A DNA stretch of 32,000 bases. It comes from Nostoc sp. PCC 7120 = FACHB-418. GTDB taxonomy: Bacteria > Cyanobacteriota > Cyanobacteriia > Cyanobacteriales > Nostocaceae. A program made the translations under genes and the position numbers. Each line of letters starts with the position of its first letter. The first letter of the stretch is position 1. Below the pieces are notes generated by a model. That model was not told the origin of the DNA and made no database searches. It was given only the letters and a program-made list of their open reading frames with translations. Where the stretch lies: the NCBI RefSeq assembly GCF_000009705.1, contig NC_003267.1, positions 60,001 to 92,000 on the forward strand, read 5' to 3'. Positions 598 through 18,432 of the stretch are shown in pieces.

Positions 598-1203
598 ATG
601 AACCGAACCGTAAAACTCAAACTGGATGCACCTGTCACCTATGCTGCTTTACAATCCTTAACCAACATCAGCCAAGAAACCATATTTCAAGCACTTGATG
701 GCAACGAGACAGCTGCCGCAGAGGTAGCAGATTTCCGAATCAAACAAACTCAACGCGCCCAAAATGCCAAAGCTGTATTCGGCAACTTAAACCAAGGGTT
801 ACAAGCAACTGAGGCAGTCATGGCTGAAGAAACCCAGTTTCTCACCACCGCAGGTGCAAGCATCAACAAAATGGCTGATGGTTGGTCAAAGGTCAGAGCC
901 AGCGATGCGCGTTTGGGCTATGGACTACAGCAAAAAGTTATTGCATCTGATAACCAACTAGCCCAAGAACAGTTCCGGCATGGACGGACGCTTAACCTAT
1001 TGGGGGAATCTCACCGCGCCGCCCTTAGAGTGATTGAGATTGATGCAACAAAGGCACAATCTCAGGTTTGGCAGCAGGTAAAGGATAAACAGCTTGGTCT
1101 TTCAGGAGCAGACCTAGCCAAAGAAACACTCAAGGACATTCACAGACACGGTTCTAACGCCATGCGCTCTGTGAAAGGTTTCTTTAGACGCTTGATTGAC
1201 TAA
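598..1203 (+). CDS. hypothetical protein, predicted alpha-helical, no recognisable domain
   Basis: 201-aa ORF with an ATG start, lying between two structured intergenic repeats. Same strand as the following genes. Q/A/K-rich helical composition. Confidence 0.55.
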   Translation: MNRTVKLKLDAPVTYAALQSLTNISQETIFQALDGNETAAAEVADFRIKQTQRAQNAKAVFGNLNQGLQATEAVMAEETQFLTTAGASINKMADGWSKVRASDARLGYGLQQKVIASDNQLAQEQFRHGRTLNLLGESHRAALRVIEIDATKAQSQVWQQVKDKQLGLSGADLAKETLKDIHRHGSNAMRSVKGFFRRLID

Positions 1204-1465: not shown

Positions 1466-2032
1466 ATGCTGACCAAAAATGAGAAAACACCTATTTACTT
1501 CAATGCTGAGATTGTTGATGAGTCGCCTACATCTTTAACCGGGGATGAATACGACTCTCAACTCTTACAACAGGCGATCGCCTCCACTGACAGTTCTATA
1601 ACTATATTTCGTGGCATTGCCCAAGGTGCAGTTTTAGCTGGTTTTCAACTGGTTTCAACCCAATCGCTGTATCTGGCTGGCTGTGTAGGACTGTTCCCGG
1701 CAGTAGTAGCTGGTTTACCAGTAGGTGCTTCAGTAGCTGCCACTCTCTGCTACTTGCGTTTTGAAAAAAGTCTGATTCCCAAAATTACCAATCGTCAAAA
1801 GTTGGCTATTGGTGTCACTCGTACTGCAATGCTGGCTGCTAGTTCTTACAAGTTAACCGGGGATGCCCAACAGATGGACTCTATAGCCCGTGGCAGTTTT
1901 CAAGTATTTACCCAGCAGGTGAGAGAGTTTGAAGGTATTGAGCAACCTAGTCAAAATCATTTCGGCTTCTTGTTGGGGTTTTGGGTATGTGCAGCCCTGG
2001 CACTGTTTTTATTTTTACGGAAGAAGCGATGA
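1466..2032 (+). CDS. small integral membrane protein (3-4 predicted TM helices), unknown function
   Basis: In-frame ATG at 1466 (MLTKNEKTPIYF...). The upstream part of track ORF 1274..2032 is only the C-rich repeat arm. Hydrophobic segments include AVLAGFQLV..LAGCVGLFPAVVAGLPVGASVAATLCYL and a C-terminal FLLGFWVCAALALFLFLRKKR. Its stop overlaps the next start as ATGA. Confidence 0.55.
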   Translation: MLTKNEKTPIYFNAEIVDESPTSLTGDEYDSQLLQQAIASTDSSITIFRGIAQGAVLAGFQLVSTQSLYLAGCVGLFPAVVAGLPVGASVAATLCYLRFEKSLIPKITNRQKLAIGVTRTAMLAASSYKLTGDAQQMDSIARGSFQVFTQQVREFEGIEQPSQNHFGFLLGFWVCAALALFLFLRKKR

Positions 2033-3933
2033 TGAAAGATGTTAAACCGAGCCAATTAGATCAACGCTCCTACAGTCTGCCACCACGTTTAGGTTTGGTT
2101 ATTAAACTATCTGTGGCAGGTGCTTTAGTTTGTGGCATAGCTGCCCATATCGGTGACGGTATAGCCAAGAAGGACATCTGTTTCTACCCCAAATCAGCCA
2201 GAATCCACGATGCGCCCATACTCGCAGGTGAGGGTAATCCAGAAGAACTATTGCTGGGTAAAAAATATTGTCGCTACGAACAGCGATCGCAAATTCCCGA
2301 ACCATATTTGAAGGCTAACCAGTACCGCACCAGCAACCCAAACTATAACCCTTGGGCATTCCTCCAGCATGAAGGCTTGTATATATTCCGCTCACTGCCA
2401 GCCGACAATCCATTTAAGATTCATTTGGGTATTGCAGCGATCGCATTTGGAGGGATAGGTTTGTGGGCCACTAGTAAGGCACAAGATTATTTTAGTGATA
2501 TTCGACCGCATTACCGAGCTACCAAGCAATTTGAAGGTGTAAAAGCCTCTTACAGTGTCAAACTGGGTGAGCAATTGTTGGAACTATCTGGTAACGAATT
2601 GCTGAAATACTTGCGTGGTATCAAAATTGCGGAAGCCAGACAGCAGTTTATCGCCAGCATTACCCCACAACAGCAGACAGCCCTACTTATGGCGATGTCG
2701 GCTGACGATTATTATGAGTTTGGTCACTTGTTAGATGGGGGTCAAAGCTTTGAGAAATTTGAGCCACAGCAACAGCCAGCCGCACAATTACCACACGGCA
2801 CACCCGGCACTGTGCAAGAGCAAGTACAACAGTCAACGCTTGCACCTCAAGATGTACCAACAGGCGATTATCTTCACCTATCGGAGAGCGTTGCACTAAC
2901 TACTCTGCAAAGTATAGCCCGTTCTGATGGTTCTACTGCTTTAGTTGCTGCCCCAGGCTCAGGAAAATCCGTTGCCCTTGATTACCTGATTCGGAGGATT
3001 CTGGATAGTGACAATAGTGCTGATATTTGGGTCATCAGTGCCAAAAATGATAGCTTTTGTGGTTTACGGGACAAGGGTAAGGTAATTGTCTTTGATCAGG
3101 AGCAACCAGAAGCAACTAAACGCACAATTGATCACTTTTATGACTGCTACAAGCAACGTAAGCAGTTACCTGAACATAAACGGGAATCATTACCACCGTT
3201 AATTCTGATTTTGGATGATTGGTTAGTTATCGCTGACCAACTTAGTAAAGCTTTCTCGGACTGGAATTATGGAAGTAAGTTACTTGATGTCTTACTGATT
3301 GGTAGAGAGTTTAACACTAAGTTTTTTGCTTCCCTTCAGTCTTTTAATTTGGCTGCATTAGGTATTGAAAAGATGGATTCTCAAACTCGTCTCTGCCTCA
3401 ATTTACTGTTATTAGGTAACAGGTATATCAAAAATGGTAGGGAACAAGAATCTTATGGAGTGCTGGAGTTAATTTTAAATAGGGGTGACATTATCCCAGG
3501 CAAGCAAGAACGGGAAGACATTAAGTCTAGATACCTTCAGATAAAACCTATATCTTATAAAAATTTCCGTCCCATCTTGATTGCTTCTTTGGGTGGTTTT
3601 GTTGTGGCACTGATGCCTAAACTATCAAAGCAGTCCGATTCTATTGCTGATGAAATACCTTATGAGGATAGAGTTTTTGACTTAGAGTTTAATTTAGAAT
3701 TGAACGGTCAACAATTAAAACATCAACAACAATTAAGTGAAGCAGCCAATAAAGTTTTAGAATACTTCCATAATGTGAAAAATAAAGTACCTAAGACATT
3801 ACGTGATTTAAAGAAAGCTGACAGGCTTATCAGCTACTCAGAACAGGAATTAATTGCTGGTTTACAGGAATTAATTCAGGCTGAAAAGCTCTTAGCTGGT
3901 GAAAATAATACTTATTTATTACCTGATTGGTAA
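2029..3933 (+). CDS. membrane-anchored P-loop NTPase, FtsK/HerA/TraB-like (putative DNA translocase) with a C-terminal helical (possibly wHTH) tail
   Basis: ATG at 2029 overlaps the upstream TGA (ATGA). There are two N-terminal hydrophobic helices (LVIKLSVAGALVCGIAAHI and IHLGIAAIAFGGIGLWA). Walker A is AAPGSGKS (2950-2970) and Walker B is PPLILILDDW. The family assignment is by motif only. Confidence 0.6.
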   Translation: MMKDVKPSQLDQRSYSLPPRLGLVIKLSVAGALVCGIAAHIGDGIAKKDICFYPKSARIHDAPILAGEGNPEELLLGKKYCRYEQRSQIPEPYLKANQYRTSNPNYNPWAFLQHEGLYIFRSLPADNPFKIHLGIAAIAFGGIGLWATSKAQDYFSDIRPHYRATKQFEGVKASYSVKLGEQLLELSGNELLKYLRGIKIAEARQQFIASITPQQQTALLMAMSADDYYEFGHLLDGGQSFEKFEPQQQPAAQLPHGTPGTVQEQVQQSTLAPQDVPTGDYLHLSESVALTTLQSIARSDGSTALVAAPGSGKSVALDYLIRRILDSDNSADIWVISAKNDSFCGLRDKGKVIVFDQEQPEATKRTIDHFYDCYKQRKQLPEHKRESLPPLILILDDWLVIADQLSKAFSDWNYGSKLLDVLLIGREFNTKFFASLQSFNLAALGIEKMDSQTRLCLNLLLLGNRYIKNGREQESYGVLELILNRGDIIPGKQEREDIKSRYLQIKPISYKNFRPILIASLGGFVVALMPKLSKQSDSIADEIPYEDRVFDLEFNLELNGQQLKHQQQLSEAANKVLEYFHNVKNKVPKTLRDLKKADRLISYSEQELIAGLQELIQAEKLLAGENNTYLLPDW

Positions 3934-3947
3934 AGCATCTGTCGTAG

Positions 3948-4089
3948 TGCCGTAAGTTCTAGATGCTACCTTTAAGTGATTTATCCTCTTTGTACGGCAT
4001 AGTCTCAAATCACGGCATGGCTTACCAGCAAAGCATTTTAGCCTACGGCATATTTACGGCAAGTTACGGCAGGCACGAAACTCACGGCA
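3948..4089. repeat. Array of seven YACGGCA motifs (one inverted) immediately 3' of the ATPase gene; candidate protein-binding site array (clt, centromere or iteron-like)
   Basis: Motif positions are tgccgta 3948-3954 (inverted), tacggca 3993-3999, cacggca 4011-4017, tacggca 4044-4050, ttacggca 4054-4061, ttacggca 4064-4071 and cacggca 4083-4089. Three of them are spaced 10-11 bp apart. Confidence 0.75.
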
Positions 4090-4139
4090 GATATCTAGAT
4101 TGAATTAGTATTAGCTAAAAATCCCTAAATAAGAATTCA

Positions 4140-4295
4140 GAAGTCAGGAGTCAGAACTCAGTATTGATTTTAGACTACTAAGTAATGAGTACAATTTTAA
4201 AAGCTCATTTCTTGTAACTCAAATAAAATTTACTTACTTCTTGAAACTCCCATCTTTTAATAGATAGATTATTCTTAATTCTGACTCCTGACTTC
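4140..4295. repeat. Perfect 17-bp inverted repeat (gaagtcaggagtcagaa / ttctgactcctgacttc) enclosing 122 bp of AT-rich DNA
   Basis: The left arm at 4140-4156 is the exact reverse complement of the right arm at 4279-4295. It lies upstream of the 4355 CDS. The AGTCAGG tandem heptamers are typical of cyanobacterial short repeats. Confidence 0.8.
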
Positions 4296-4354
4296 CTTTT
4301 ATTACATTAATTCCTACAAATGCTTAATTAAACCCATCAAAAAAGGCATGAGTT

Positions 4355-5197
4355 ATGACAGTTTTTACAAGATTCCGTCAAGTTAATTTCTCAGCAATTG
4401 AAAGCCTTGCTCAAAATTTAAAGTCGGCGCTTCAAGAGATAGTCTCTCTAGAGAAAGATAAACAATACTTTTTTATCCAAAATGAAGCAATCTTAGTTCA
4501 CAAGCTTGTGAAAAATGCTGCTAACTCAATTAATCATTTGGTGCGTATAGATTTGGATAACCAAAAAGCTGTTGAAGTTGTCAAAACTGTAGTTAAGTAT
4601 TTACATACTGCCTATATTAGAGTTTCCAGAACTGCTGGTTATGTTGCACAGAAAGTAGAACGGTTATGGAGTGAGGCATTTAATCTGTTACCTTCAGGTA
4701 CGATAATACAGCCTGAACTGTTTGCGCCTAATGAAGTTAAATCTGTTGAAGAAAATAAAACTCCTATTCTTGGTGTTATTACCAAGTGGTTTAAGGATCA
4801 TGCTCAACGTTGGGCTTTTCAACAACAACAACAATTAGATAAACAGTATTTTGATTACATCAACAACGGTAAACCAAAGCCCCCGGTTGCAGTACAGCTA
4901 TGTCTTGATTTAGAAAGTGTTGCTCCTGCCAACCTTGTAGCCAAAATAGATGGTGATAACGGATGTTCAGAGGTTTATACTTTTGAGCAAATACACTGTT
5001 ACGGTTATCAAAAGCTGGAAGCGCTGAACAATCATACTTTAACTATCGACAGTATCAAGAATTTAACTCTACGGGCTGCGCGAAGACTGGCTAGTGAGTT
5101 GGGACTGCCTCAAAAAATCAATGGGCAGGATTTGAGAAAGGAGGCGCTGATTGCTTCTCTGCTGGACTGGTGGCAGCAGCAAGCTTACCAGTGTTGA
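4355..5197 (+). CDS. hypothetical protein with a C-terminal SAP/HeH (Rho_N-like) helix-extended-helix motif; possible DNA-binding protein
   Basis: 280-aa ORF. The C-terminus LTLRAARRLASELGLPQKINGQDLRKEALIASLL fits the L..aa.LA.elGl....G.rKeeLI..L pattern of SAP/HeH motifs. The rest is unrecognised. Confidence 0.5.
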   Translation: MTVFTRFRQVNFSAIESLAQNLKSALQEIVSLEKDKQYFFIQNEAILVHKLVKNAANSINHLVRIDLDNQKAVEVVKTVVKYLHTAYIRVSRTAGYVAQKVERLWSEAFNLLPSGTIIQPELFAPNEVKSVEENKTPILGVITKWFKDHAQRWAFQQQQQLDKQYFDYINNGKPKPPVAVQLCLDLESVAPANLVAKIDGDNGCSEVYTFEQIHCYGYQKLEALNNHTLTIDSIKNLTLRAARRLASELGLPQKINGQDLRKEALIASLLDWWQQQAYQC

Positions 5198-5521: not shown

Positions 5522-8500
5522 TTATCTCCACCATCGTGACACATCCTGAATAGCAGAAGCTGTATCTTTCATTGCTTGTTTACCACCTAAAGTAAATATC
5601 ACAGGAGTTAATGCATTTATATCACTCAGTAAATTTGGGCGAGTGTGAATAGATAAAATGTTCAAAGTATCTCGCCAGAGATCAAAAAGTGGAGTTTTTT
5701 GTATTTGTGAAAGTTTATCAGCCAAACTACTTATGGCATAGGCGCGCTTATGCGTAGACTGAATCTCCCTAGCAGCAGCCAGTGCCTCACTTAACAATTC
5801 AGGTGGCAGTAGAGTAGCCAAACTACTTAGAGTGTTGGCGCGATACTCCTCATTCTGAATCTCCCTAGCAGCAGCCAGTACCTCACTTAACAATTCAGGT
5901 GGCAGTAGAGGAGCCAAACTACTGAGGGCGTTGGTGCGATACTCCTCATTCTGAATCTCCTTAGCAGCAGCAAGTGCCTCACTTAACAATTCAGGTGGTA
6001 GTAGAGGAGCCAGACGGCTTAGGGCTTTGGCGCGATAATACTCATCCTGAATCTCCTCAGCAGCAGCTAGTGCCTCACTTAACAACTCTGGTAAGTTATC
6101 AGCCAAACTACTTAGGGTTTTGGCGCGATAATACTCATCCTGAATCTCCCTAGCAGCAGCTAGTGCCTCACTTAACAATTCAGGTGGTAGTAGAGGAGCC
6201 AGACGGCTTAGGGCTTTGGCGCGATAATACTCATCCTGAATCTCCTTAGCAGCAGCAAGTGCCTCACTTAACAATTCAGGTAGCAGTAGAGGAGCCAAAC
6301 TACGTAGGGCTTTGGCGCGATAATACTCATCCTGAATCTCCTTAGCAGCAGCAAGTGCCTCACTTAACAACTCTGGCAACTTATCAGCCAAACTACATAG
6401 GGCTTTGGCGCGATAATACTCATCCTGAATCTCCTTAGCAGCAGCAAGTGCCTCACTTAACAACTCTGGCAACTTATCAGCCAAACTACGTAGGGCATAG
6501 GCACGATAATACTCATCCTGCATCTCCCTAGCAGCAGCAAGTGCCTCTGGTAACAACTTTGGCAGTAGAGGAGCCAGACGGCTTAGGGCTTTGGCGCGAT
6601 AATACTCATCCTGAATCTCCTTAGCAGCAGCAAGTGCCTCACTTAACAATTCAGGTAGCAGTAGAGGAGCCAAACGGCTTAGGGCTAAAGCGCGATCATA
6701 CTCAGACTGAATCTCCTTAGCAGCAGCAAGTGCCTCTGGCAACAACTTTGGCAGTAGAAGAGCCAAACTACTGAGGGCTAAAGCGCGATACTCCTCATTC
6801 TGAATCTCCCTAGCAGCAGCCAGTACCTTACTTAACAATTCAGGTGGCAATTTATTAGGCAAACTACTTAGAGTGTTGGCGCGATACTCCTCATTCTGAA
6901 TCTCCCTAGCAGCAGCCAGTACCTCACTTAACAATTCAGGTGGCAATTTATTAGGCAAACTACTTAGAGTGTTGGCGCGATACTCCTCATTCTGAATCTC
7001 CCTAGCAGCAGCCAGTACCTCACTTAACAATTCAGGTGGCAGTAGAGGAGCCAAACTACTGAGGGCTAAAGCGCGATACTCTTCATCCTGAATCTGCCTA
7101 GCAGCAGCCAGTGCCTCACTTAACAATTCAGGTGGCAGTAGAAGAGCCAAACGGCTTAGGGCTAAAGCGCGATCATACTCATACTGAATCTCTCTAGCAG
7201 CAGCCAGTGCCTCTGGTAACAACTCTGGCAACTTACCAGCCCAACTACTTAGGGTTTTGGCGCGATAATACTCATCCTTAATCTGCCTAGCAGCAGCCAG
7301 TGCCTCACTTAACAATTCAGGTGGCAGTAGAGGAGCCAAACGGCTTAGGGCTAAAGCGCGATCATACTCAGACTGAATCTCTCTAGCAGCAGCAAGTGCT
7401 TCTGGCAACAACTCTGGCAGTAGAAGAGCTAAACTACTTAGAGCGTTGGCACGATTTGACTCATCCTGAAACTCCCTAGCAGCAGCCAGTGCCTCACTTA
7501 ACAATTCAGGTGGTAGTAGAGGAGCCAGACGGCTTAGGGCTTTGGCGCGATAATACTCAGACTGAAACTCCCTAGCAGCAACCAGTGCCTCACTTAACAA
7601 TTCAGCAGGCAGTAGAGGAGCTAAACTACTTAGAGCGTTGGCACGATTTGACTCATCCTGAAACTCCCTAGCAGCAGCCAGTGCCTCACTTAACAATTCA
7701 GGTGGTAGTAGAGGAGCCAAATTACTTAAAGCATAGGCGCGACCCTCCTCATCCTGAATCTCCCTAGTAGCAGCCAGTGCCTCTGGCAACAACTCTGGCA
7801 GTAGAGGAGCCAAACTACTTAGGGCTTTGGCGCGATAATACTCATCCTGAAACTCCTTAGCAGCAACCAGTGCCTCTGGCAACAACTCTGGTATTAGAGG
7901 AGCCAAACTACTTAAAGCATAGGCACGACCCTCCTCATCCTGAATCTCCCTAACAGCAGCCAGTGCCTCTGGCAACAACTCTGGCATTAGAGGAGCCAAA
8001 CTACTTAGGGCTTTGGCACGCTTATACTCATCCTGAATTTCCCTAGCAGCAGCCAGTGCCTCTGGCAACAACTCTGGCAGTAGAGGAGACAAACTACTTA
8101 GAGATCTGACGCGATTTGACTCATCCTGAATCTCCCTAGCAGTAGCCAGTGCCTTACTTAATAATTCAGGTGGCAGTAAAGGAGTTAAACTACTTAGGGC
8201 ATAGGCACGCTCTAACTCAGCTTGAATCTCCCTAGCAGCAGCAAGTGCCTCACTTAAAAACTCAGGTAGCAGTAGAGGAGCCAAACTACTTAGGGCGTTG
8301 GCGCGATTTGACTCATCCTGAATCTCCCTAGCAGCAGCCAATGCTTTCCTTAGCCCTAATTCTTTTAGGTTTGGTGGCAAATGATTGACTAGCTGTGTAA
8401 GCAAGTAGGCTTTATTTTCTGGGTTCGAGCTTTGTAGCACGTAAGCGAGTCCTTGCTGGGGAGTCCAGACATTTTTTTGAACTAACGCAATCAACAGTTG

Positions 8501-9967
8501 GGCTGGTAAATTAGCTGCCAGACTATTAAGGGATGCAATAATCAAAGCATAGCGACATTGCATCCCAATGACTTCAGGTAGGGATGTAAGAGTCCAGGAG
8601 CCTTCTGCCGATTGCCAAGCACGAGCAATATCAGTTACAAAATTGGCAGTTTGCCCCAAGCTCGCGCACGCTTCATACCAACCATTACCGCCTGCTGAAG
8701 TTTCCTCTTGTAAAAGTTGATGTATCTGATTTAATTGGTTCGCTTGCTGGAAATGCCAAGTTAAATGAGCATGAATATAATCATCAGCAGGTAATGTATG
8801 CCATTGCCCTGATTGAGTTTTTTCTTGATAACGGTCTAATAACGCCGAATGAGCAACAGTCAAACTGAATCCCAGTCCTGGTAGTTTTCCTGGTTGATTA
8901 GGAACTTTCTCTCCTATAAGTAATCCAATAGCTACATCGTGCATTAAGTCATGTAGCCTGTAAGTTGGTTTTTTGTCAAACTGTATTGTTCCCGTTTGCA
9001 GTAATGCTTTAGACCGTAATTGACGTAATATTGTCAAAGCTTGTCTAGGATTAACACCCCAAAGCGTTGCCGCCATTGCATGGGTAATAACCACATCTTC
9101 TGGTAAAACTCCAAACCAAGCAAATTGTTGTAATAATTCTGGAGTTAAAGAATTCAAGCTGAGATTAAAAGAAGCTACCAGAGAATACTTTTTGCGCTTT
9201 TCTTCACTACTACAATCTACAAACAAGTCAAGTGTATCTAAATGAGCTATTTCTGCCTTTAAATCTTTTAGCAATTCTTCCCAGGCTATTCCATCTGCTC
9301 GCTGCGCTGCTGCCAATTCTAACGCTAAGGGTAAATAACCAACCGTTTCTGCTAAAAGTTCCGCCTGCTGTTTTTCTGCTTGGGTAAATTGCTTCAGATG
9401 TGGTTGACTTTCTAGAAGCTTTAGCGATTCGCTCTTTGTCATCACGTCCAGATCATAGCGGCTTGCCGCTAGTATCACAGCCTCTCGTGTAGTTACAAGT
9501 ACCCGACAACCAGCACCACCTACTTGAAAATATTCAACGTGTTCCGGATTCCAAGCGTCATCTACCACCAGCAAAACTTTCTTATCATAAAGTAAGGTCT
9601 GCAAGTGTCTTTTTGCATCATCTGATTGAATGGGTTTATAGTTATTGTCTCCTAAAGCCAGAATCCAACTACTTAATAATGGCAACAAATCAGGTTTTTG
9701 ACCTAAAGTAGCCCACAAAACCCCATCTTTAAAATAAGCTTGAACCTCATTATCATGGGCTATAGCCGCAGCTAATGTTGATTTACCAATTCCACCTAAT
9801 CCATAAATGGCACTAACAACTAAAGTTCCTTGACTATTTGTTTCTTGCCCCAGTAAAACTGCTTTTACTGCTTCATGGTGTAAGGGACGTTCTACAAAAT
9901 TAATTGGTAAAGGTGGTGCTTGGAAAGGTTTTTCTAACTTTACCCGTTCTCCAACGGGCGGCTGTAG
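5522..9967 (-). CDS. NB-ARC (AP-ATPase/STAND) NTPase with helical linker and 28 tandem HEAT/ARM-like repeats. The reading frame is open up to the in-frame TGA at 9968-9970 and has no canonical start before the P-loop.
   Basis: Motifs are P-loop GLGGIGKST (9776-9802), Walker B KKVLLVVDDAW, RVLVTTRE, GLPL motif GYLPLALELAAA and MHD motif RLHDLMHDVA. These are followed by 28 copies of EALAAAREIQDEYYRAKALSSLAPLLPPELLS. The track ORF (9718) starts at a TTG after the P-loop, but the frame is open upstream to 9967. Confidence 0.85.
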   Translation of the reverse strand, partial: LQPPVGERVKLEKPFQAPPLPINFVERPLHHEAVKAVLLGQETNSQGTLVVSAIYGLGGIGKSTLAAAIAHDNEVQAYFKDGVLWATLGQKPDLLPLLSSWILALGDNNYKPIQSDDAKRHLQTLLYDKKVLLVVDDAWNPEHVEYFQVGGAGCRVLVTTREAVILAASRYDLDVMTKSESLKLLESQPHLKQFTQAEKQQAELLAETVGYLPLALELAAAQRADGIAWEELLKDLKAEIAHLDTLDLFVDCSSEEKRKKYSLVASFNLSLNSLTPELLQQFAWFGVLPEDVVITHAMAATLWGVNPRQALTILRQLRSKALLQTGTIQFDKKPTYRLHDLMHDVAIGLLIGEKVPNQPGKLPGLGFSLTVAHSALLDRYQEKTQSGQWHTLPADDYIHAHLTWHFQQANQLNQIHQLLQEETSAGGNGWYEACASLGQTANFVTDIARAWQSAEGSWTLTSLPEVIGMQCRYALIIASLNSLAANLPAQLLIALVQKNVWTPQQGLAYVLQSSNPENKAYLLTQLVNHLPPNLKELGLRKALAAAREIQDESNRANALSSLAPLLLPEFLSEALAAAREIQAELERAYALSSLTPLLPPELLSKALATAREIQDESNRVRSLSSLSPLLPELLPEALAAAREIQDEYKRAKALSSLAPLMPELLPEALAAVREIQDEEGRAYALSSLAPLIPELLPEALVAAKEFQDEYYRAKALSSLAPLLPELLPEALAATREIQDEEGRAYALSNLAPLLPPELLSEALAAAREFQDESNRANALSSLAPLLPAELLSEALVAAREFQSEYYRAKALSRLAPLLPPELLSEALAAAREFQDESNRANALSSLALLLPELLPEALAAAREIQSEYDRALALSRLAPLLPPELLSEALAAARQIKDEYYRAKTLSSWAGKLPELLPEALAAAREIQYEYDRALALSRLALLLPPELLSEALAAARQIQDEEYRALALSSLAPLLPPELLSEVLAAAREIQNEEYRANTLSSLPNKLPPELLSEVLAAAREIQNEEYRANTLSSLPNKLPPELLSKVLAAAREIQNEEYRALALSSLALLLPKLLPEALAAAKEIQSEYDRALALSRLAPLLLPELLSEALAAAKEIQDEYYRAKALSRLAPLLPKLLPEALAAAREMQDEYYRAYALRSLADKLPELLSEALAAAKEIQDEYYRAKALCSLADKLPELLSEALAAAKEIQDEYYRAKALRSLAPLLLPELLSEALAAAKEIQDEYYRAKALSRLAPLLPPELLSEALAAAREIQDEYYRAKTLSSLADNLPELLSEALAAAEEIQDEYYRAKALSRLAPLLPPELLSEALAAAKEIQNEEYRTNALSSLAPLLPPELLSEVLAAAREIQNEEYRANTLSSLATLLPPELLSEALAAAREIQSTHKRAYAISSLADKLSQIQKTPLFDLWRDTLNILSIHTRPNLLSDINALTPVIFTLGGKQAMKDTASAIQDVSRWWR
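5711..8347 (-). repeat. Coding tandem repeat, 28 units of 93-96 bp (31-32 aa), many units near-identical at DNA level
   Basis: The period is visible directly. For example, tcctgaatctccttagcagcagcaagtgcctcacttaacaa recurs about every 94 bp, and 6841-6936 is essentially repeated at 6935-7030 (protein units 15 and 16 are identical). Confidence 0.9.
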
Positions 9968-10384
9968 TCAAGTATGGTAGTTATGAGTGTGATGACCACC
10001 GATGTTTGTTGTACCTTTTTCAGTCTCTACTTTAGTTTGGTAGCCCGTACTGTTGTCATAGTTATTTTGGGTCATGTTGCTGTTGTCTAACAGTTTTCCC
10101 ACATTAATCTCTTGCGCCAGTGCTTGTACCTGGGAAGCAAATTGTGGCTCGTCATCCATCACATCTTGTAAATAGACTGCTAGACGCTCTAACTCTGACT
10201 TATTTCCTTGTTCAACCGCAGTTAGTGCTTTTTCTGCTCTTGGATTACCTCGTAACTTATTCCAAATTTTCTGACGTAACTCATCCATCTTCACAAGGGC
10301 TGCTTCAGTGAATTTCTCTATTGTCGTCTCAAAAGCTTTAGTAAAAGCAAGAGTAACGATTACACCAGCAGTAAGTGGTTCCAT
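9968..10384 (-). CDS. N-terminal module of the NLR-like gene (138 aa): hydrophobic first helix, helical bundle and N/Q/G/T/H-rich tail. It ends at a TGA in frame with the NB-ARC ORF.
   Basis: ATG at 10384 is preceded by GAGG 6 nt upstream. Sequence runs MEPLTAGVIVTLAFTKAFETTIEKF...DNSNMTQNNYDNSTGYQTKVETEKGTTNIGGHHTHNYHT. The stop TGA at 9968-9970 is in the same frame as 5522..9967. Confidence 0.65.
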   Translation of the reverse strand: MEPLTAGVIVTLAFTKAFETTIEKFTEAALVKMDELRQKIWNKLRGNPRAEKALTAVEQGNKSELERLAVYLQDVMDDEPQFASQVQALAQEINVGKLLDNSNMTQNNYDNSTGYQTKVETEKGTTNIGGHHTHNYHT

Positions 10385-11076: not shown

Positions 11077-12443
11077 CAGAACAAATCGATTCTTTTGCTA
11101 ATACGTAAATTAGCTTATCTCTAATGAAATAACTGTTGTCTAAGGGTAAATTAGTTAACTATTTAGCCATGAGTAAGTAAGCTTATCCCTAAAAATAAGC
11201 AACAATCATAACTAAATTATTGATAGGCTAGTTTACGCTAAAGCTAGAACTCTTTCTAAATATTTATTGTCCATTGCTGCCAGAAACTGTTTATTTTTGA
11301 TTCCCCGTTTCACACGCTTCTCTTTACCTAAAAGATTTACTGCTATCTGCCGCATTACTGCAAAATTTTGTGGAGCATTATCTTTCCTAATCCGGCAGTC
11401 ATCTTCTTTTAAAGCTACATCTAATATCCAATGCAATGAATTTTCTATTCCCCAGTGACTGCGAACAGAATTAGCAAATTGTTTGGCATTATCTTCAAGA
11501 CTACTAATAAAATAACGAATCTCCACTGTTGTTTTAGCATCTACTTGCCGGACGGATTCTACCATCCCAATACTATTAAACTTTGACCAAGCTGAATCAG
11601 GGTCAAGTCGGGATTAGATTCCTGTTAACATCGCGTAGTTGCGGATTTCATGACGACCATGCCCATGTTCTTCTGTTTTGTATGTGCTATGTTGAAAATC
11701 TTGAAAACCTTTGCCTATCTCTGCTTTAAATAGTTGCTCTACTTCATCATACAGATTACCTTGATTCTTTTTGAGGGTAATTACATAATCTGCGTTTTGT
11801 TGGCTAATTAACTTCACAATCTCCTTCTGGCAACCGATGGCATCAATTGTCACAATACAACCAGATAGTTCTAATACTTTTATTAATTCGGGAATTGCTG
11901 TAATTTCATTTGATTTCTCATCCACCTTTACCTGCCCTAACACTAACTTATTTGTAGTTGCCCACGCACTTACCATTTGTATTGCACTTTGGTTACTGCT
12001 TCTATCATGGGAGCCACATAAAGTTTTGCCGTCAATTGCTACTACCTCACCATCCGTCCTGATCTTTATTGACTTTATCCAGTTTAAGAAACATGACTGA
12101 AATTGCTGTGAATCCAATTGTGCAAAGACTCGTGCAAATGTATCGTGTGATGGTATTCCATTTGGTAGCTCCAAAAACGTTTTCAACCACTCATATTTTG
12201 TGCAGCCATACAATTCAATTGCCACCCAACTGTCCGCTCCACATATCACTGCACATAAAGCAATGGTGAGAATGTCAATTAATTTGTGCCGTTTTGTCCG
12301 ATCTACTCTTGGATCTTCCATCTGTGCAAAGTGGTCAGTAATCGTGATTTTGGGCTTGAGCTTCATGAAGAGAGTGGTACGGTAGTTCTTCTTTTTTTCT
12401 CGCACTCTTGAATTTACTACAAAAATGAACCCACATTGCCCTG
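11077..12443 (-). mobile_element. ISAs1-family insertion sequence (ends tentative)
   Basis: It contains the ISAs1/H-repeat-type transposase. The right end ...cattgccctg (12443) gives the CAGGG terminus I recall for ISAs1. The imperfect partner is cagaacaaatcgattcttttgctaatacgtaaatt at 11077-11111, against cagggcaatgtgggttcatttttgtagtaaatt. No target duplication was found. Confidence 0.4.
11233..12366 (-). pseudogene. ISAs1-family (H-repeat-associated) DDE transposase, inactivated by one in-frame TAA
   Basis: Sequence reads MKLKPKITITDHFAQMEDPRVDRTKRHKLIDILTIALCAVICGADSW...IPSHDTFARVF, then RSHWGIENSLHWILDVALKEDDCRIRKDNAPQNFAVMRQIA. The two track ORFs (11614..12405 and 11233..11565) are in the same frame and are separated only by TAA at 11614-11616. 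Confidence 0.8.
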
Positions 12444-13848: not shown

Positions 13849-15048
13849 TCAAATAGCTTGTTTTAAATTAGAAGCTGTCTTTTCTGGATTACCGGAAAAT
13901 GGGAAAACTAAAATACTCTGAATATTGGGATTATTCACTAATTCTTTTAAACGACTAAGCTGCTTATCTGTAATTGCAATTCCAGCATATTTTTGGGCGT
14001 AATTTAGTTCTTCAGTAAAATTCTTATCATTATATGCTTGAATGAATACTCGGTCTACACCCCACTGTTCCCAATCAGCCGCAAAATATTTTTTAGCCCA
14101 ATAAGGGTTATGATGACAAATATCAAAACTTACCAAAGAATTCGCTTCTTTCATCGAGCTTGTCATTTGTTGTACAAACTTAGTTAAATGCTTAGTTCTG
14201 TCAGTTTTTCCCGGTAATTCAGCATAATATCCTAGATAATCATCCCATTGAACTGCATCAACATTAGGATATTTCTTAACGAACTCAACTGAAATATTTT
14301 TGAAGAAAGTAGCAACTTCTGGTTTCTCTACATCAAGTACATAATGGTCAATCCCGGCATAAGTTTTATCTATTCCTGGCACCATCCAATTTTTAGCAAC
14401 AGCTAAATCAAAAATCGGACTATTTTTATCTATTTTAATTCCCTTCTCAAAATAAGCATGAACTTGCATTCCTTGTTTATGTGCTTCATCAATCAACCAA
14501 TTTAACCATTTTTCTTGAAATTGGTTAGGACAACTGCTATATCCTAAAGTTTGCTGCATCACATCACTTTTGTACATCGTACAACCATTACCCCAAACAC
14601 CATGAATAATGGTATTGATACCTTGAGAACGATAGTAGCGAACTCTCTGACGAATCGTTTGCTCATCGGCATTATTTGTAGCTTGATAACGACTTAAATA
14701 AATCCCTCTAATTAGTTTTTTCTCCCAAGGATTTGGAGGTAATACTGTTTTTCTCTCTTGTGTTATTGTGCTTGAAGCTTTGTTATTTTTAGAAGCTACA
14801 TTTACAGATGTAGGTAAAGAATTCTTTGGAGTTGCAGAAGCAGTGGGTATGGAAATTGAGGGGGACGTTGGAGTAGGATTGAAAATTGGGATATTTATTC
14901 GTTCATCCTTGGATAAAAATCTGCTGAACATATCTAAATTTTCTGCTTGACTGAACCACCAGTAACCACCTCCCGCGACAGCTAGTATTACGGATAATGG
15001 AATATTTAGGCACCCACATCCACTACGGTCTTTTTTTTGGTGCGGCAT
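13849..15048 (-). CDS. membrane-anchored glycoside-hydrolase-like protein (GHL10/YngK-type TIM barrel), tentative
   Basis: 399-aa ORF with an N-terminal TM segment (LNIPLSVILAVAGGGYWWF) and a Ser/Thr/Pro-rich linker. IRGIYLSRY...YYRSQGINTIIHGVWGNGCTMYKS...LIDEAHKQGMQVHAYFE resembles the GHL10 family pattern. Confidence 0.5.
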   Translation of the reverse strand: MPHQKKDRSGCGCLNIPLSVILAVAGGGYWWFSQAENLDMFSRFLSKDERINIPIFNPTPTSPSISIPTASATPKNSLPTSVNVASKNNKASSTITQERKTVLPPNPWEKKLIRGIYLSRYQATNNADEQTIRQRVRYYRSQGINTIIHGVWGNGCTMYKSDVMQQTLGYSSCPNQFQEKWLNWLIDEAHKQGMQVHAYFEKGIKIDKNSPIFDLAVAKNWMVPGIDKTYAGIDHYVLDVEKPEVATFFKNISVEFVKKYPNVDAVQWDDYLGYYAELPGKTDRTKHLTKFVQQMTSSMKEANSLVSFDICHHNPYWAKKYFAADWEQWGVDRVFIQAYNDKNFTEELNYAQKYAGIAITDKQLSRLKELVNNPNIQSILVFPFSGNPEKTASNLKQAI

Positions 15049-15868
15049 ATTAATTTCAATATTATCAGTTAATCTCGCTATATATACAGATTACTACCAT
15101 TGTAGATTTACCGAAGAAGAATTCAGAATACATCTCTCATAAAATATTTTCAGAGTGAATCTTCACAAATCAAAATCGAGAGTAAATGTATCATCATCAG
15201 GTTTTTCTGATGTTTGAGGTATAACGGTAACCAGATACCACCTGAGTCACAACGCGCAATTATTACTGAGACGAAAGCAAATATTAAGATGAACTACCCC
15301 TGGCTACTTCGTTGAGCCAGGGGTTTCTACATCCCCTAGCGTAGCCTGAGATTTTTGACGTTTCCTTTGACCCAGTTGCTTCATGCTTCCCGCAGTTTTG
15401 CGGGTACGTGAAGTAGAGCTAGAATCATCTACGCCTTCGAGACTCGTTCCAAATCCCGGTAGTCTTCCTGAGTGCCAAAGCAACATAACCTCGCCAGAAG
15501 CGATGTCACGCTGCTGAGTGTAGTTACAATTAGAGCAAATATGCACTCTCTGGTCTAAAGTTTTCTTTTCCTGATGCCCACATTTAGGGCAAGTTTGTGA
15601 TGGTTTTATCTTCTTAGTTGGTGCTTCAGAAAACACACCACTAAAATCATCCAACTTAGCCTTGAGGGATTGTTTTATCATCCCCATACCAACATCAAGA
15701 ATTGATTTGTTCAGACCAGATTTTTGCTTCTTGCGTTTACCCTTTTTAGCTTTGGCACTCATATTTTTGACTTCTAGTTGTTCAGTTACCACCGTGCTAT
15801 TACCGCTAATTATTCGTGTAGTAACTTGATGAACCCAGTTCTGACGCTGATTAGCTACTTTTCTATAT

Positions 15869-17181
15869 GAGAACTCCACAAAAAAGATGATCCAATAGCT
15901 ATGCTGGTTTAGCAAAAATTTCCACAAACCATTTTTTGAGATTGGGGAGGCGGTTAATCTGGGTTTCAATTTCTTCCATAGCTGAAGTTGTAAGTTTAAC
16001 TCCTGTGGAGTAAACTTTTTCTACCAGTGTGACAACCGGATTTTTACCCTTAAATGTGAGAGTTTGGGCGAAATTCAGTACGGTCTCAACGGTGTCAAGT
16101 AAACTACCATTCCAATGCTGTTCTAACCAACCAAAGCAACGTTCTATTGGGTTGTATTTGCTATGATACGGCGGATAATAAGCAAGTTGTAACGTCAGTT
16201 GAGATGATGTGCTAAAATCTACAACCCGCTTCATAAACTGAGTGCGACGAGAATGATTTTCCGGTCCATTATCTTGATTAATTACCAGTTTTTGAATATG
16301 AGCAAATCGGTGTTTGACATTTTGCCACCAGCTTTCAAGCAAGTCAACAATACAATCAGCAGTTAATTTGGAAGAAACGAAAAATAAAAATAACTCGTTG
16401 TACTCAGGTATAAAAATGCCGTAGGGAATCAGAGTCATCTCGGTCGGAAAGTCGTGGTCTAATGAGGTAGTTGGGATTCGAGTTTTACCACCTCGGTCAA
16501 ACTCTCCAATCTTGACTGCCACCTTCGCATCAATGGAGATCCGGAGAGTATGAGGGTCATTATCAGCTTCAGTATTAATTTGCTCGACTTGTTCAAAAAT
16601 GGCTTCTGTTTCTGGAATCTTCTTGATAGGCTTGGTTTTCAGAACTCGTTTTAAGGTATAACCCAAATCATTCAATCGTCGTCGAATTGTCTCTGATGAA
16701 GGTAGTTCTTTGTCACTGTAACCAAATTGTTCAATTAGTTGACGACGTACAACACTTGCCGTCATGCGTGTATATAAGCGTGTACTCTTAAAACTGGGGT
16801 CAGTTTGAGTTTGTGGGTCTACTAACGATTTAATATCCTCCAACAAGTTTGGTAATTTTGTTTCCACCCGCTTACGTCCACTACGCTCAAAACCATCAAT
16901 AAAAGGCTTGCCACTCTCCAACTCCTGCATCCCTTTACGGATAGTACGCCTATTCCATCCCAACTCGCGTTCTACTAAAGTCTGTCCACCAATTCCCAAA
17001 CCTTTGACCACTTCTGCCATGAATTGTCGTCGGTCGCTTCCCTTGAGTTTTTTCGCTGTTTTGATGTAAAGAGATTTTAGGTTCTCTGTGAGTTGAATGA
17101 TAGATTTTGGAGACATGAGGTAGGCTGCACACTGAAATTATCTTTCTCTGATCATAGGATCAATCATTCTGTGCAGTTCTC
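15869..17181 (-). mobile_element. IS630-superfamily / ISAzo13-like insertion sequence nested inside tnpB
   Basis: Terminal inverted repeats are (t)gagaactccacaaaaaagatgatcc at 15868/9 onward, against the reverse complement of 17181 downward, gagaactgcacagaatgattgatcc. It is flanked by TA (or TAT) on both sides (15866-15867 and 17182-17183). About 1.31 kb with a single transposase ORF. Confidence 0.85.
15899..17116 (-). CDS. DDE transposase, IS630 superfamily / ISAzo13-like
   Basis: 405-aa intact ORF with an N-terminal HTH region. DDE-region motifs are ISIDAKVAVKIGEF, VINQDNGPENHS and YYPPYHSKYNPIERCFGWLEQHW. Confidence 0.85.
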   Translation of the reverse strand: MSPKSIIQLTENLKSLYIKTAKKLKGSDRRQFMAEVVKGLGIGGQTLVERELGWNRRTIRKGMQELESGKPFIDGFERSGRKRVETKLPNLLEDIKSLVDPQTQTDPSFKSTRLYTRMTASVVRRQLIEQFGYSDKELPSSETIRRRLNDLGYTLKRVLKTKPIKKIPETEAIFEQVEQINTEADNDPHTLRISIDAKVAVKIGEFDRGGKTRIPTTSLDHDFPTEMTLIPYGIFIPEYNELFLFFVSSKLTADCIVDLLESWWQNVKHRFAHIQKLVINQDNGPENHSRRTQFMKRVVDFSTSSQLTLQLAYYPPYHSKYNPIERCFGWLEQHWNGSLLDTVETVLNFAQTLTFKGKNPVVTLVEKVYSTGVKLTTSAMEEIETQINRLPNLKKWFVEIFAKPA

Positions 17182-18009
17182 TATAACTTACTAATCCGCG
17201 ATTGAACTTTCTTCCATCTCCTAGAAGCTTTCTGTCTTTTCTTGTAATTAGGTGAACGCTTACGACGTTTGGCTTTACTTAATTGTTTGATTTTCTTCTC
17301 TGCATTCCTAAAAAATCTAGGGGCAGAAATTAACCCGTTTTCTTCTCCGTTAGTCCAAGCAATTGCATCATTGCAACCCAAATCAATTGCAACCACACCA
17401 CTATCTGTTTTACGGCTACTTCTCAGCATCTCATCATCTACATCCAAAACTATAGATGCGTACCATTTACCATTGCGGTGAACTATGTCTAGTGCTTTGG
17501 GATGACCCCACAACCTAGACTTACCCCGCATTTGTATAGAACCAATCTTAGCTAGTTCTAGATAGCCGTTATCGCCTGTACTATGACATTTCCATCCTGT
17601 AAAAGATGGGTAGCTCCAACCAGAATAGCGGCGAATTGATTTGAATTTAGGATAACCACCTAGACCTTTGAAGAAACGTTGGAATGCTAAATCAACACGT
17701 TTTAATGTTGATTGCAATGATTGGGAATTTATTTGTTTATATTCAGTCCAAACTTCCTTAAAATCTGGTAGGCAATTTTGTTGATCAAAGTACGAAACTG
17801 ACTTACCAAATTTCTTGTAAGACGTAATTCTATTAGACACTGCGGCATTGTAGAGTTCTTTATGAAGTCTCCGGTGATAGTGCAATAAATCATTCACTTT
17901 CTTGGTTGGATATAACCTAAAAGTTGCTCTACGCAATGCCACTAAATATCACCCCCTGTAGTAATCAAGACTCATGGTATAGTACCATTGGTGAAATTCA
18001 GTTGTCAAC

Positions 18010-18432
18010 ATGAAAACTCAGTTTAGAAAAGCGTCCCATGCTGTTTTTAGCATTCACTTACACGTTGTACTTATTGCCAAATATCGTAAAGAAGTTATTA
18101 CACAGGAAATACTTGTTAAGTTACAAGAAGTATTCAACCGTGTTTGCGAGAAACGTAAATGCTTGCTTACTGAGTTTAGTGGCGAAGACAACCATGTGCA
18201 TTTGTTGATAGACGTGCATCCTGACAACAATATTTCACAGCTAATTGGTTCACTCAAATCAGCATCAAGTCGCATTATTAGAAAAGAGTTTCAAGATTAT
18301 CTAAAACAATATTATTGGAAAGAGAAAGACCCTAGTTTTTGGACTGATGCCTACTCTGTCAATTCAGTGGGTGGCGCACCGCTAGAAATAGTCAAAGAAT
18401 ATATCCGTTCTCAGGACAAACCCGAAAGATAA
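18010..18432 (+). CDS. tnpA: IS200/IS605-family Y1 (HUH) transposase TnpA
   Basis: 140 aa, with HUH motif NHVHLLIDV and catalytic-Tyr region FWTDAYSVNSVGG. This is the typical size and layout. Confidence 0.9.
   Translation: MKTQFRKASHAVFSIHLHVVLIAKYRKEVITQEILVKLQEVFNRVCEKRKCLLTEFSGEDNHVHLLIDVHPDNNISQLIGSLKSASSRIIRKEFQDYLKQYYWKEKDPSFWTDAYSVNSVGGAPLEIVKEYIRSQDKPER

Follow-up and report, generated by a model that had tools for sequence, protein, structure and literature searches.

The plasmid DNA of Nostoc sp. PCC 7120 analysed here (contig NC_003267.1, positions 60,001 to 92,000; these 32,000 nucleotides are called the window below) raises a specific question: what reads the short word YACGGCA, which is packed into an array immediately behind the stop codon of a gene for a membrane-anchored ATPase? 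On the evidence of the conservation of this array, the covariation of its word with the last ~70 residues of the ATPase, and the predicted architecture of that protein, we consider that the array is probably the cognate cis-acting recognition or loading site of the upstream ATPase. The protein would be a membrane DNA translocase of the TraB/FtsK kind, and the array would correspond to the clt loci of Streptomyces plasmids.

The word occurs nine times in the window, against 4.06 ± 2.09 copies expected on both strands from dinucleotide-preserving shuffles of this AT-rich, cyanobacterial DNA. Seven of the nine lie within 142 bp (3948-4089), where the rescaled shuffle mean predicts ~0.018, and just two, at 2794 and 16417, lie outside the array, which starts 7 bp past the ATPase stop codon (TAA at 3931-3933). 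A preceding sequence-only reading had pointed out this cluster, with its first copy inverted and three copies at helical-repeat spacing. Its coordinates and counts were correct, as was the arithmetic behind its figure of 0.07 expected occurrences of a given hexamer on both strands of 142 bp (2 × 142/4096); the inverted copy was found at 3948-3954 on the minus strand, and the three copies (4044, 4055, 4065) are 11 and 10 bp apart. The array is no chance cluster. The layout of all copies is given in Table 1.

No open reading frame (ORF) of 50 amino acids or more in the window ORF list runs across the array, a promoter and terminator scan of the array region gave no signal above background, and Rfam and tRNA scans of the window returned no matches. 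Folded as RNA, the array is modestly more stable than shuffles (z −2.4), with motif pairing to motif; folded as single-stranded DNA it is unremarkable (z −0.9). An RNA or single-stranded DNA structural element was considered and rejected, as the RNA score stems from motif-motif pairs and one class of related arrays, the GACAGA class described below, has no inverted copies. Small ORFs have been called over related arrays, namely an NCBI-annotated coding sequence at 7992-8123 of locus L001 and a gene call in a contig collection at 7997-8320 of locus L044; these are probably spurious calls on repeat DNA.

The ACGGCA array is kept 3′ of homologous ATPase genes on at least 17 Nostocales plasmids, whichever gene comes next. 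The same array stands behind ATPases of 89-96% identity (L001-L004), and the same layout behind ATPases that are ~51% identical (pNPM5 and pNPUN04) or related in the C-terminal half only (pNPM4 and pNSMS103). Among L005-L008, the next gene is variously a response regulator gene, a hypothetical gene, or hsdR in opposite orientation. An alignment of five plasmids shows invariant motif copies and differing spacers. Across 17 distinct arrays, conservation amounts to 97% in motif columns and 76% elsewhere, which none of 5000 permutations reached in a test whose column definition is partly circular. Off the array, the word occurs at chance frequency in the flanks of all loci. In the complete 41-kb plasmid pNPM5, 8 of 15 copies fall in a 141-bp array, and the other 7 compare with 5.3 expected by chance. 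As regards two of the checks suggested in the sequence-only reading, the array is conserved behind homologous ATPases regardless of the downstream gene, and the word is not dense elsewhere in the window, in the locus flanks or on pNPM5.

The same counts bear on the idea that the word is a polarity signal guiding a translocase round the replicon, like the FtsK orienting polar sequences (KOPS) or the SpoIIIE recognition sequences (SRS). A 7-8 bp oriented word beside an FtsK-like motor is what this idea calls for, and FtsK and SpoIIIE resemble the predicted Nostoc protein as membrane-anchored ring translocases whose C-terminal winged helix (gamma in FtsK) reads an oriented 8-bp word. KOPS, however, are dispersed and strand-skewed over the replicon, whereas the Nostoc word was found neither dispersed nor skewed in the window, the locus flanks or pNPM5; off-array copies in the window number 2 against ~4 expected. 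None of six tails matched the Pfam model FtsK_gamma at E ≤ 10. The analogy with KOPS, which the sequence-only reading had drawn, fails because the word is confined to one site, and we give this explanation next to no credence.

Nor does the array follow the gene behind it. In the window, the array lies in the intergenic region upstream of a gene at 4355-5197, and could be the operator or promoter of this gene, or a site for its product, which has a HeH/SAP-like C-terminus and had been put forward as a possible binder in the sequence-only reading. Homologs of the 4355 protein, however, are confined to the closest group of plasmids (74-100% identity to the L001 homolog, mostly full-length or nearly so). 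Only short fragments are left in L004 and L020, and none was found in L005-L008, which keep the array in front of unrelated or opposite-strand genes. In the window itself, a miniature element of ~180 bp separates the array from the gene, and promoter and terminator signals are at background. With its homolog missing from many array-bearing plasmids, the 4355 protein is not supported as the partner, and we regard a role as operator as highly improbable.

The array turned out to be one case of a more general rule. Related ATPases with a different C-terminal tail of ~70 residues are followed by another word at the same place (AGACACC, GACAGA, CGCCGGRA, TGGGGTC or YGCAGAA), and so are ATPases that are ~85% identical to the window protein in the N-terminal half and have another C-terminal half; AGACAGA was found in Fremyella plasmid14, and AGACACC in Nostoc UHCC 0870. 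Thirty further loci were taken from species-representative genomes. Of 39 loci, 36 have a word cluster no more than 260 bp from the stop codon; they fall into the classes ACGGCA (18 loci), AGACAC(C) (12) and GACAGA (6). In 29-30 of 40 loci, no 6-mer cluster anywhere in the locus (3-32 kb) is denser than this post-stop cluster. The usual layout consists of two inverted copies, a gap of 35-45 bp and about six direct copies. ACGGCA and AGACACC arrays share this blueprint, with inverted copies at +6 to +16 and direct copies near +60, +70-80, +102-111, +112-122 and beyond; GACAGA arrays are all direct and begin within the last codons of the gene, so that three copies lie inside the ATPase ORF in L028. 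The prediction that distant homologs with novel tails carry novel words held in three of the five examined. In the novel-word loci L044, L046 and L048 (Table 1), inverted copies again come first, followed by a run of direct copies.

We then compared motif classes separately for the N-terminal module, the core and the tail of the ATPase. Within a motif class, tail identity does not fall below 52%; between classes it does not exceed 44% (67% counting L010), whereas core identity between classes reaches 97%. The clearest domain swap involves L028 (GACAGA) and L026 (AGACACC), both from N. paludosum FACHB-159, which are 94% identical in the N-terminus, 97% in the core and 41% in the tail; the breakpoint falls just before the tail, with 94-97% identity up to about alignment position 505 and 33-47% after it. 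In a second swap, found in L022, a window-type core is joined to a GACAGA tail, and the array is of the GACAGA class. L005-L008 have only the core (78-82%) and the tail (61-63%) in common with pNOS3756_2, and keep ACGGCA. Loci with other words share p88, p63, p132, p201 (75-91%), p188 (61-79%) and the ATPase N-terminus (77-86%); judged by these identities, p201 and p188 are not specificity determinants. ParM, p136, p53 and p88 are also common across motif classes, and the relaxase type among carriers varies (MOBF, MOBP, MOBV or none). No coding segment other than the ~70-residue tail therefore changes with the word every time, since the core, ParM, Rep, the relaxase and the other operon proteins are all uncoupled from it.

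N. paludosum FACHB-159 carries three modules of three classes (L014, L026 and L028), which fits plasmid-specific self-recognition better than recognition by a host factor and suggests that tail/array classes act as groups for compatibility or addressing. A metagenome-assembled genome of Mojavia pulchra likewise has several modules (L021, L027, L032 and L039), which differ in tail and array class.

The operon to which the ATPase belongs invites another explanation. The first ~5.5 kb of the window are 94% identical to plasmid pNOS3756_2 of Nostoc sp. NIES-3756 (L001) and 87-89% identical to other Nostoc plasmids, in which the gene order is a divergent small helix-turn-helix (HTH) regulator, ParM/StbA, several small ORFs, a 201-aa protein, a 188-aa membrane protein, the ATPase and the array. 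As ParM/StbA heads the operon in most relatives, and type II centromeres are arrays of short direct repeats (10.1101/2025.06.27.661541), the array might be a parC/parS-like centromere bound by ParR or by a small operon protein. ParMRC systems are indeed plasmid-borne, with short direct-repeat arrays. In these systems, however, ParR binds parC at the parM promoter, whereas the Nostoc array lies at the far end of the operon and is independent of the ParM/ParR type: the ParM of L001 (ACGGCA) recurs at 84% identity in L031 and L034 (AGACACC), and L005-L008 (ACGGCA) have no detectable homologs of the L001 ParM, p136, p53 and p88. No YACGGCA is present upstream of parM. There is a separate set of repeats at the parM promoter, and these go with the ParM type; in L001, between the HTH regulator gene and parM (1806-1950), there are 6-8 copies of a ACATCCAT-like 9-bp repeat, and L005 and L011 share a leader with AAGCCAGAA though their downstream arrays differ. 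A centromere at the array is thus very unlikely, and the ACATCCAT-like repeats themselves may be a parC or an operator, separate from the ATPase array.

Rep proteins proved to be uncoupled from the word as well. Origins of the iteron type are direct-repeat clusters, and in pNPM5 a few kb separate the module from the Rep gene, so the array could be a set of Rep iterons, acting as an origin or copy-control site. The CyRepA1 of pNPM5 (ACGGCA), however, and the Rep next to L033 (AGACACC) share 94% identity over 928 aa; one and the same Rep type thus accompanies two different arrays, and other ACGGCA plasmids have an unrelated 716-aa neighbour in place of CyRepA1. The words are 7-8 bp long and not the usual 17-22 bp of iterons, and control of replication by the CyRepA1 of pSYSA has been mapped to a small RNA region immediately upstream of rep (PMC10899382). 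Iterons are accordingly an extremely doubtful explanation. The sequence-only reading had kept both iterons and a parS-like centromere as alternatives; neither survives the comparison of Rep proteins and the uncoupling of ParM type from the word.

What kind of protein carries the tail? The window ATPase is 96.5% identical to that of pNOS3756_2; an alternative start at TTG 1981 is possible, and relatives are annotated from the ATG equivalent to 2029. In the AlphaFold2 (AF2) model, a transmembrane helix at aa 19-40 (Kyte-Doolittle peak 2.14 at aa 21-39) precedes a small extracytoplasmic domain (aa 47-123) and a second long hydrophobic helix (aa 130-158), followed by a long helix to ~210. Both the AF2 helices and the hydropathy profile thus point to an N-terminal membrane anchor such as TraB systems have. 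Three cysteines of this module (C35, C51 and C81) are invariant. The module recombines independently of core and tail, being 77-86% identical where the cores are unrelated by BLAST (L009, L023, L026 and others; module span aa 1-275, window 2029-2850).

The core has Walker A GSGKS at aa 310-314 (nt 2956-2970) and a Walker-B-like LILILDDW downstream, and residues G310, G312, K313, S314 and D341 are invariant. When the AF2 model was compared with the PDB by Foldseek, the core showed an FtsK-like RecA/ASCE motor fold, the top matches being EccC (4nh0), EssC (4lya), FtsK (6t8o and 2ius) and TcpA (6o1x, with 6o1w also among the best). Hidden Markov model (HMM) scans of 21 family members gave only sub-threshold matches to HerA/DUF87, AAA_10, FtsK_SpoIIIE, VirB4/TraC, EccCb and CedD. 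The window protein had no match to PF01580 at E ≤ 1, and 6 of the 21 members matched it below threshold (best E 0.0028); neither PF01580 nor a TraB HMM places the family in the FtsK/SpoIIIE sequence family. Among PDB sequences, phmmer and profile searches with the ATPase and with the tail found P-loop-level or insignificant matches only. From the fold matches and the sub-threshold HMM matches, the ATPase family therefore belongs to the FtsK-HerA superfamily and to no curated family. It comprises 133 protein clusters (50% identity) at E ≤ 1e-30, and every named member is from a filamentous cyanobacterium. Two very different core subtypes were seen, a window-type 'SAKNDSF...LILILDDW' and a 'LDPHGTEVEW' type.

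The tail, modelled within the full-length protein as three helices and a beta hairpin, is a candidate winged-helix DNA-recognition domain and specificity determinant. The tail of L048 passes the Pfam HTH_IclR threshold (26.2 bits against a cutoff of 22), with weak MarR, HTH_24 and HTH_27 matches, and the window tail is 35% identical to it over 66 aa (E 4e-6). The central idea of the sequence-only reading, a clt-like array for the C-terminal winged helix of an FtsK-like ATPase, thus gains support from conservation, from the tail-linked motif, from the modelled fold and from tail homology.

An FtsK-like ATPase on a plasmid could also be the type IV coupling protein (T4CP) of single-strand conjugation, in which case the array would be an origin of transfer (oriT) or relaxosome site. 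NCBI names some members 'type IV secretory system conjugative DNA transfer family protein', the FtsK-like coupling protein TcpA ranks with the best fold matches, MOBF/MPF_T is the type assigned to the closest plasmids, and the combination of inverted and direct repeats with the RNA folding score given above would suit an oriT. However, pNOS3756_2 has a full type IV secretion system (T4SS). Its genes for a canonical T4CP, a VirB4-like ATPase, VirB10 and MobF lie at 25-44 kb, and over 30 kb separate them from the array, so the ATPase would not be the sole T4CP there. Module carriers are MOBF, MOBP, MOBV or relaxase-free, pNPM5 being non-mobilizable; the motif tracks the ATPase tail and not the relaxase type, and no covariation with a relaxase and a T4SS was found. 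GACAGA arrays lack inverted copies, and single-stranded DNA folding is unremarkable. We therefore judge an oriT to be very unlikely. TcpA of Clostridium pCW3 itself resembles the Nostoc protein in having two N-terminal transmembrane segments and an FtsK-like core. It works together with a relaxase and a T4SS, whereas the Nostoc module is also present on plasmids lacking both, or beside a separate canonical T4CP. To our knowledge, there is no repeat array downstream of the TcpA gene.

The closest parallels were found in the TraB/clt systems of Streptomyces plasmids (pSVH1, pWTY27, pJV1 and pIJ101), whose TraB or TraA proteins recognise clt repeats of 7-9 bp and pump unprocessed double-stranded DNA (PMC3583192, PMC4447253, PMC5365140, PMC3429521). 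Transfer of pWTY27 needs traA and a 175-bp clt, of which 16 bp lie inside traA and 159 bp after it; this clt consists of 7-bp direct and inverted repeats bound by the 688-aa TraA, which has two transmembrane segments (PMC3583192). TraB of pSVH1 reads 8-bp repeats through helix alpha-3 of a C-terminal winged HTH (wHTH) domain (PMC4447253, PMC5365140). A system of this kind is defined by a translocase, acting as a hexameric pore, that together with clt is both required and enough to transfer double-stranded plasmid DNA independently of a relaxase. The Nostoc system is alike in its protein of 600-700 aa with N-terminal membrane segments, FtsK-like ATPase and C-terminal winged helix (predicted here), and in its cis site, a cluster of 7-9 bp direct and inverted repeats extending over ~150-175 bp at, or overlapping, the 3′ end of the translocase gene. 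Just as 16 bp of the pWTY27 clt lie inside traA, array copies may lie inside the ATPase ORF, as in L028. In both cases, moreover, protein-word pairs are plasmid-specific, the hosts are multicellular and filamentous, and small uncharacterised, partly membrane-bound operon partners are present, comparable to the Spd proteins (PMC4447253).

The two systems also differ. The hosts are Cyanobacteria and not Actinobacteria; the Nostoc core resembles FtsK at the fold level only, below HMM thresholds; the Nostoc operon is headed by ParM, and the ATPase has an N-terminal extracytoplasmic domain containing cysteines; and the Nostoc blueprint has two inverted and then about six direct copies. The best reading of these comparisons is that the Nostoc module works like TraB/clt, as a translocase with a cognate repeat array, from outside the TraB/FtsK sequence family.

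Several observations weigh against a clt-like role of the array. The Foldseek matches reach only E 2e-5 to 1e-4, with template-modelling scores of 0.36-0.49 (normalised to target), and the core lies below every curated FtsK, TraB and T4CP HMM threshold and falls into no NCBIfam family. The window tail itself matches no Pfam wHTH model; when modelled on its own by AF2 it is poor, with a predicted local distance difference test score (pLDDT) of 57, and Foldseek found no match for this model below E 2.9. The covariation argument is weakened because the tail DNA lies within ~200 bp of the array, so that physical linkage contributes, and the blueprint is not universal because the GACAGA class lacks inverted copies. 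Some loci depart from the rule: L050 (Microcoleus), with a different tail type, has no array; L051 has a wHTH-like tail and no array within 700 bp of sequence; the array of L038 is truncated; and L021 and L024, with other tail types, have no array. Finally, L010 (pCENA543a) has a GACAGA-like tail (54-67% identity), but TCTAGATA palindromes stand in place of the expected array.

In L010, the array has apparently been replaced; post-stop TCTAGATATCTAGA palindromes occupy 2920-2995, and no GACAGA cluster is present in the 7 kb fetched. The tail of L021 is HTH-like ('NQTQIIKILW...'), and a single perfect inverted repeat, TTCGACAGAGATTCTGTCGAA, follows ~80 bp past the stop codon (~9965-9990); it may represent an alternative recognition mode.

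If the array is the loading site of the ATPase, a mechanism can be proposed. The winged-helix tail would read the 7-8 bp word YACGGCA, and the roughly six direct copies, several of them one helical turn apart, would dock the tails of an oligomeric, probably hexameric, ring. Docking would load the motor on plasmid double-stranded DNA at a unique and oriented site, which the membrane-embedded N-terminus would place at the membrane or septum. The motor might then drive the plasmid across the membrane or septum, in the manner of Streptomyces TraB at clt, or keep it in place, and the outcome could be plasmid transfer, spread within the filament, or segregation. A second ring of opposite orientation may be loaded at the two leading inverted copies, or these may serve as a boundary. 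Tentatively, and as something possible rather than likely, we further propose that the module moves unprocessed double-stranded DNA plasmids across septa or between filaments without relaxase or T4SS, as an independent cyanobacterial counterpart of TraB/clt, and that tail-plus-array cassettes are plasmid 'address labels' that let several plasmids coexist.

Relaxase-independent transfer of double-stranded DNA by a clt-reading FtsK-like pump is experimentally known only in mycelial actinomycetes (PMC4447253, PMC3429521), and no report of a TraB-like or FtsK-like system, or of this module, on cyanobacterial plasmids was found in the searchable literature. According to PMC8600333, cyanobacterial plasmids are numerous and mostly without recognisable conjugation genes, transmissibility has been demonstrated for pCC7120alpha only, and a conjugation mechanism of unknown type has been suspected in cyanobacteria (quoting Smillie et al. 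2010). The module is a candidate explanation for the spread or inheritance of plasmids in multicellular cyanobacteria. Its protein-DNA pair comes in at least six natural specificities, with natural domain swaps between them, and so offers a system for winged-helix specificity change; the module is also a possible source of cis and trans parts for cyanobacterial vectors. Even if all it does is anchor plasmids to the membrane, it would represent a novel type of partition device.

Table 1. Features of the array, the ATPase gene and its operon (positions in the window), and loci with novel words
Feature	Position	Strand	Remarks
Whole array	3940..4089	.	two inverted copies, 38-bp gap, six direct copies
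Inverted degenerate copy TGTCGTA	3940..3946	-	+6 on minus strand in relatives; exact TGCCGTA in most relatives
Inverted copy TGCCGTA (TACGGCA on minus strand)	3948..3954	-	at +14 in nearly all ACGGCA-class loci
Direct copy 1, TACGGCA	3993..3999	+	+59/60 in relatives
Direct copy 2, CACGGCA	4011..4017	+	+77/78 in relatives
Direct copy 3, TACGGCA	4044..4050	+	+110/111 in relatives
Direct copy 4, TACGGCA	4055..4061	+	+121/122 in relatives
Direct copy 5, TACGGCA	4065..4071	+	+131/132; only in window, L001 and L012; 10-bp array expansion
Direct copy 6, CACGGCA	4083..4089	+	+140/150 in relatives
Spacings of direct copies	3993 to 4083	+	18, 33, 11, 10, 18 bp
p201 gene	598-1203	+	201-aa protein, co-operonic with ATPase
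p188 gene	1466-2032	+	188-aa membrane protein, co-operonic with ATPase
ATPase gene	2029..3933	+	ORF, 634 aa, membrane-anchored P-loop ATPase; AF2 mean pLDDT 71.9
N-terminal membrane module, aa 19-158	2083..2502	+	AF2 secondary structure, hydropathy
ATPase core, aa 285-530	2881..3618	+	pLDDT 80-93; disordered linkers before and after
C-terminal tail, aa 566-634	3724..3930	+	three helices and beta hairpin, pLDDT 81-86 (full-length AF2)
L044, Dulcicalothrix			ATPase 37% identity; CGCCGGRA; 8 of 9 locus-wide copies in array
L046, metagenome			ATPase 34% identity; TGGGGTC; 10 of 10 locus-wide copies in array
L048, metagenome			ATPase 30% identity; YGCAGAA; 10 of 11 locus-wide copies in array

The window starts within the ATPase operon, and the remainder consists of cargo genes and insertion sequence (IS) elements; beyond the operon segment, matches to other plasmids are patchy and limited to such elements and cargo genes. 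Scans of the ATPase, p201, p188 and the 4355 protein against Pfam, NCBIfam, PADLOC and PHROGs gave nothing above threshold. An anti-phage defence system was considered and rejected. GC-rich hairpin mini-elements (GGAGCAGGGGAGCAGAGGAGA paired with its inverse) occur in intergenic regions of the operon at 340-450 and 1240-1390, where they create spurious low-complexity ORFs (199-594 and 1221-1472) and stretch the p201-p188 spacer relative to pNOS3756_2. The ~180-bp element between the array and gene 4355 (4125-4305) has terminal inverted repeats of 25-29 nt (GAAGTCAGGAGTCAGAACTCAG...), and looks like an insertion of the miniature inverted-repeat transposable element type because it is missing from four related plasmids.

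Further downstream, a 1398-aa ORF on the minus strand (5522-9718) matches NB-ARC/APAF1-type STAND ATPases and, near its C-terminus, has a short strong match to the N-terminal domain of an IS4 transposase; it represents either an unusual fusion or a frame that reads on into the remains of an IS element. The ISAs1 transposase at 11233-12405 is split. At 15304-18432 there is a nested IS structure, in which an IS605-type tnpB (17181-17942 and 15304-15969) is split by an ISAzo13-family transposase gene (15899-17116) and adjoined by an IS200 tnpA (18010-18432). In pNPM5 (L042, 20589-29834), a cluster of peptidoglycan-active genes encodes an SH3-domain protein, an M15 metallopeptidase, a family 10 glycosylhydrolase-like (GHL10) protein and a peptidoglycan-binding protein. 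A GHL10 gene is also present in the window (13849-15048), and such cell-wall remodelling genes on the plasmids could be functionally connected to the pump module. In pTCL26-01_C (L004, 12098-13941), nine tandem copies of a 156-nt ORF follow one another with a 211-bp period and are annotated as identical 51-aa hypothetical proteins.

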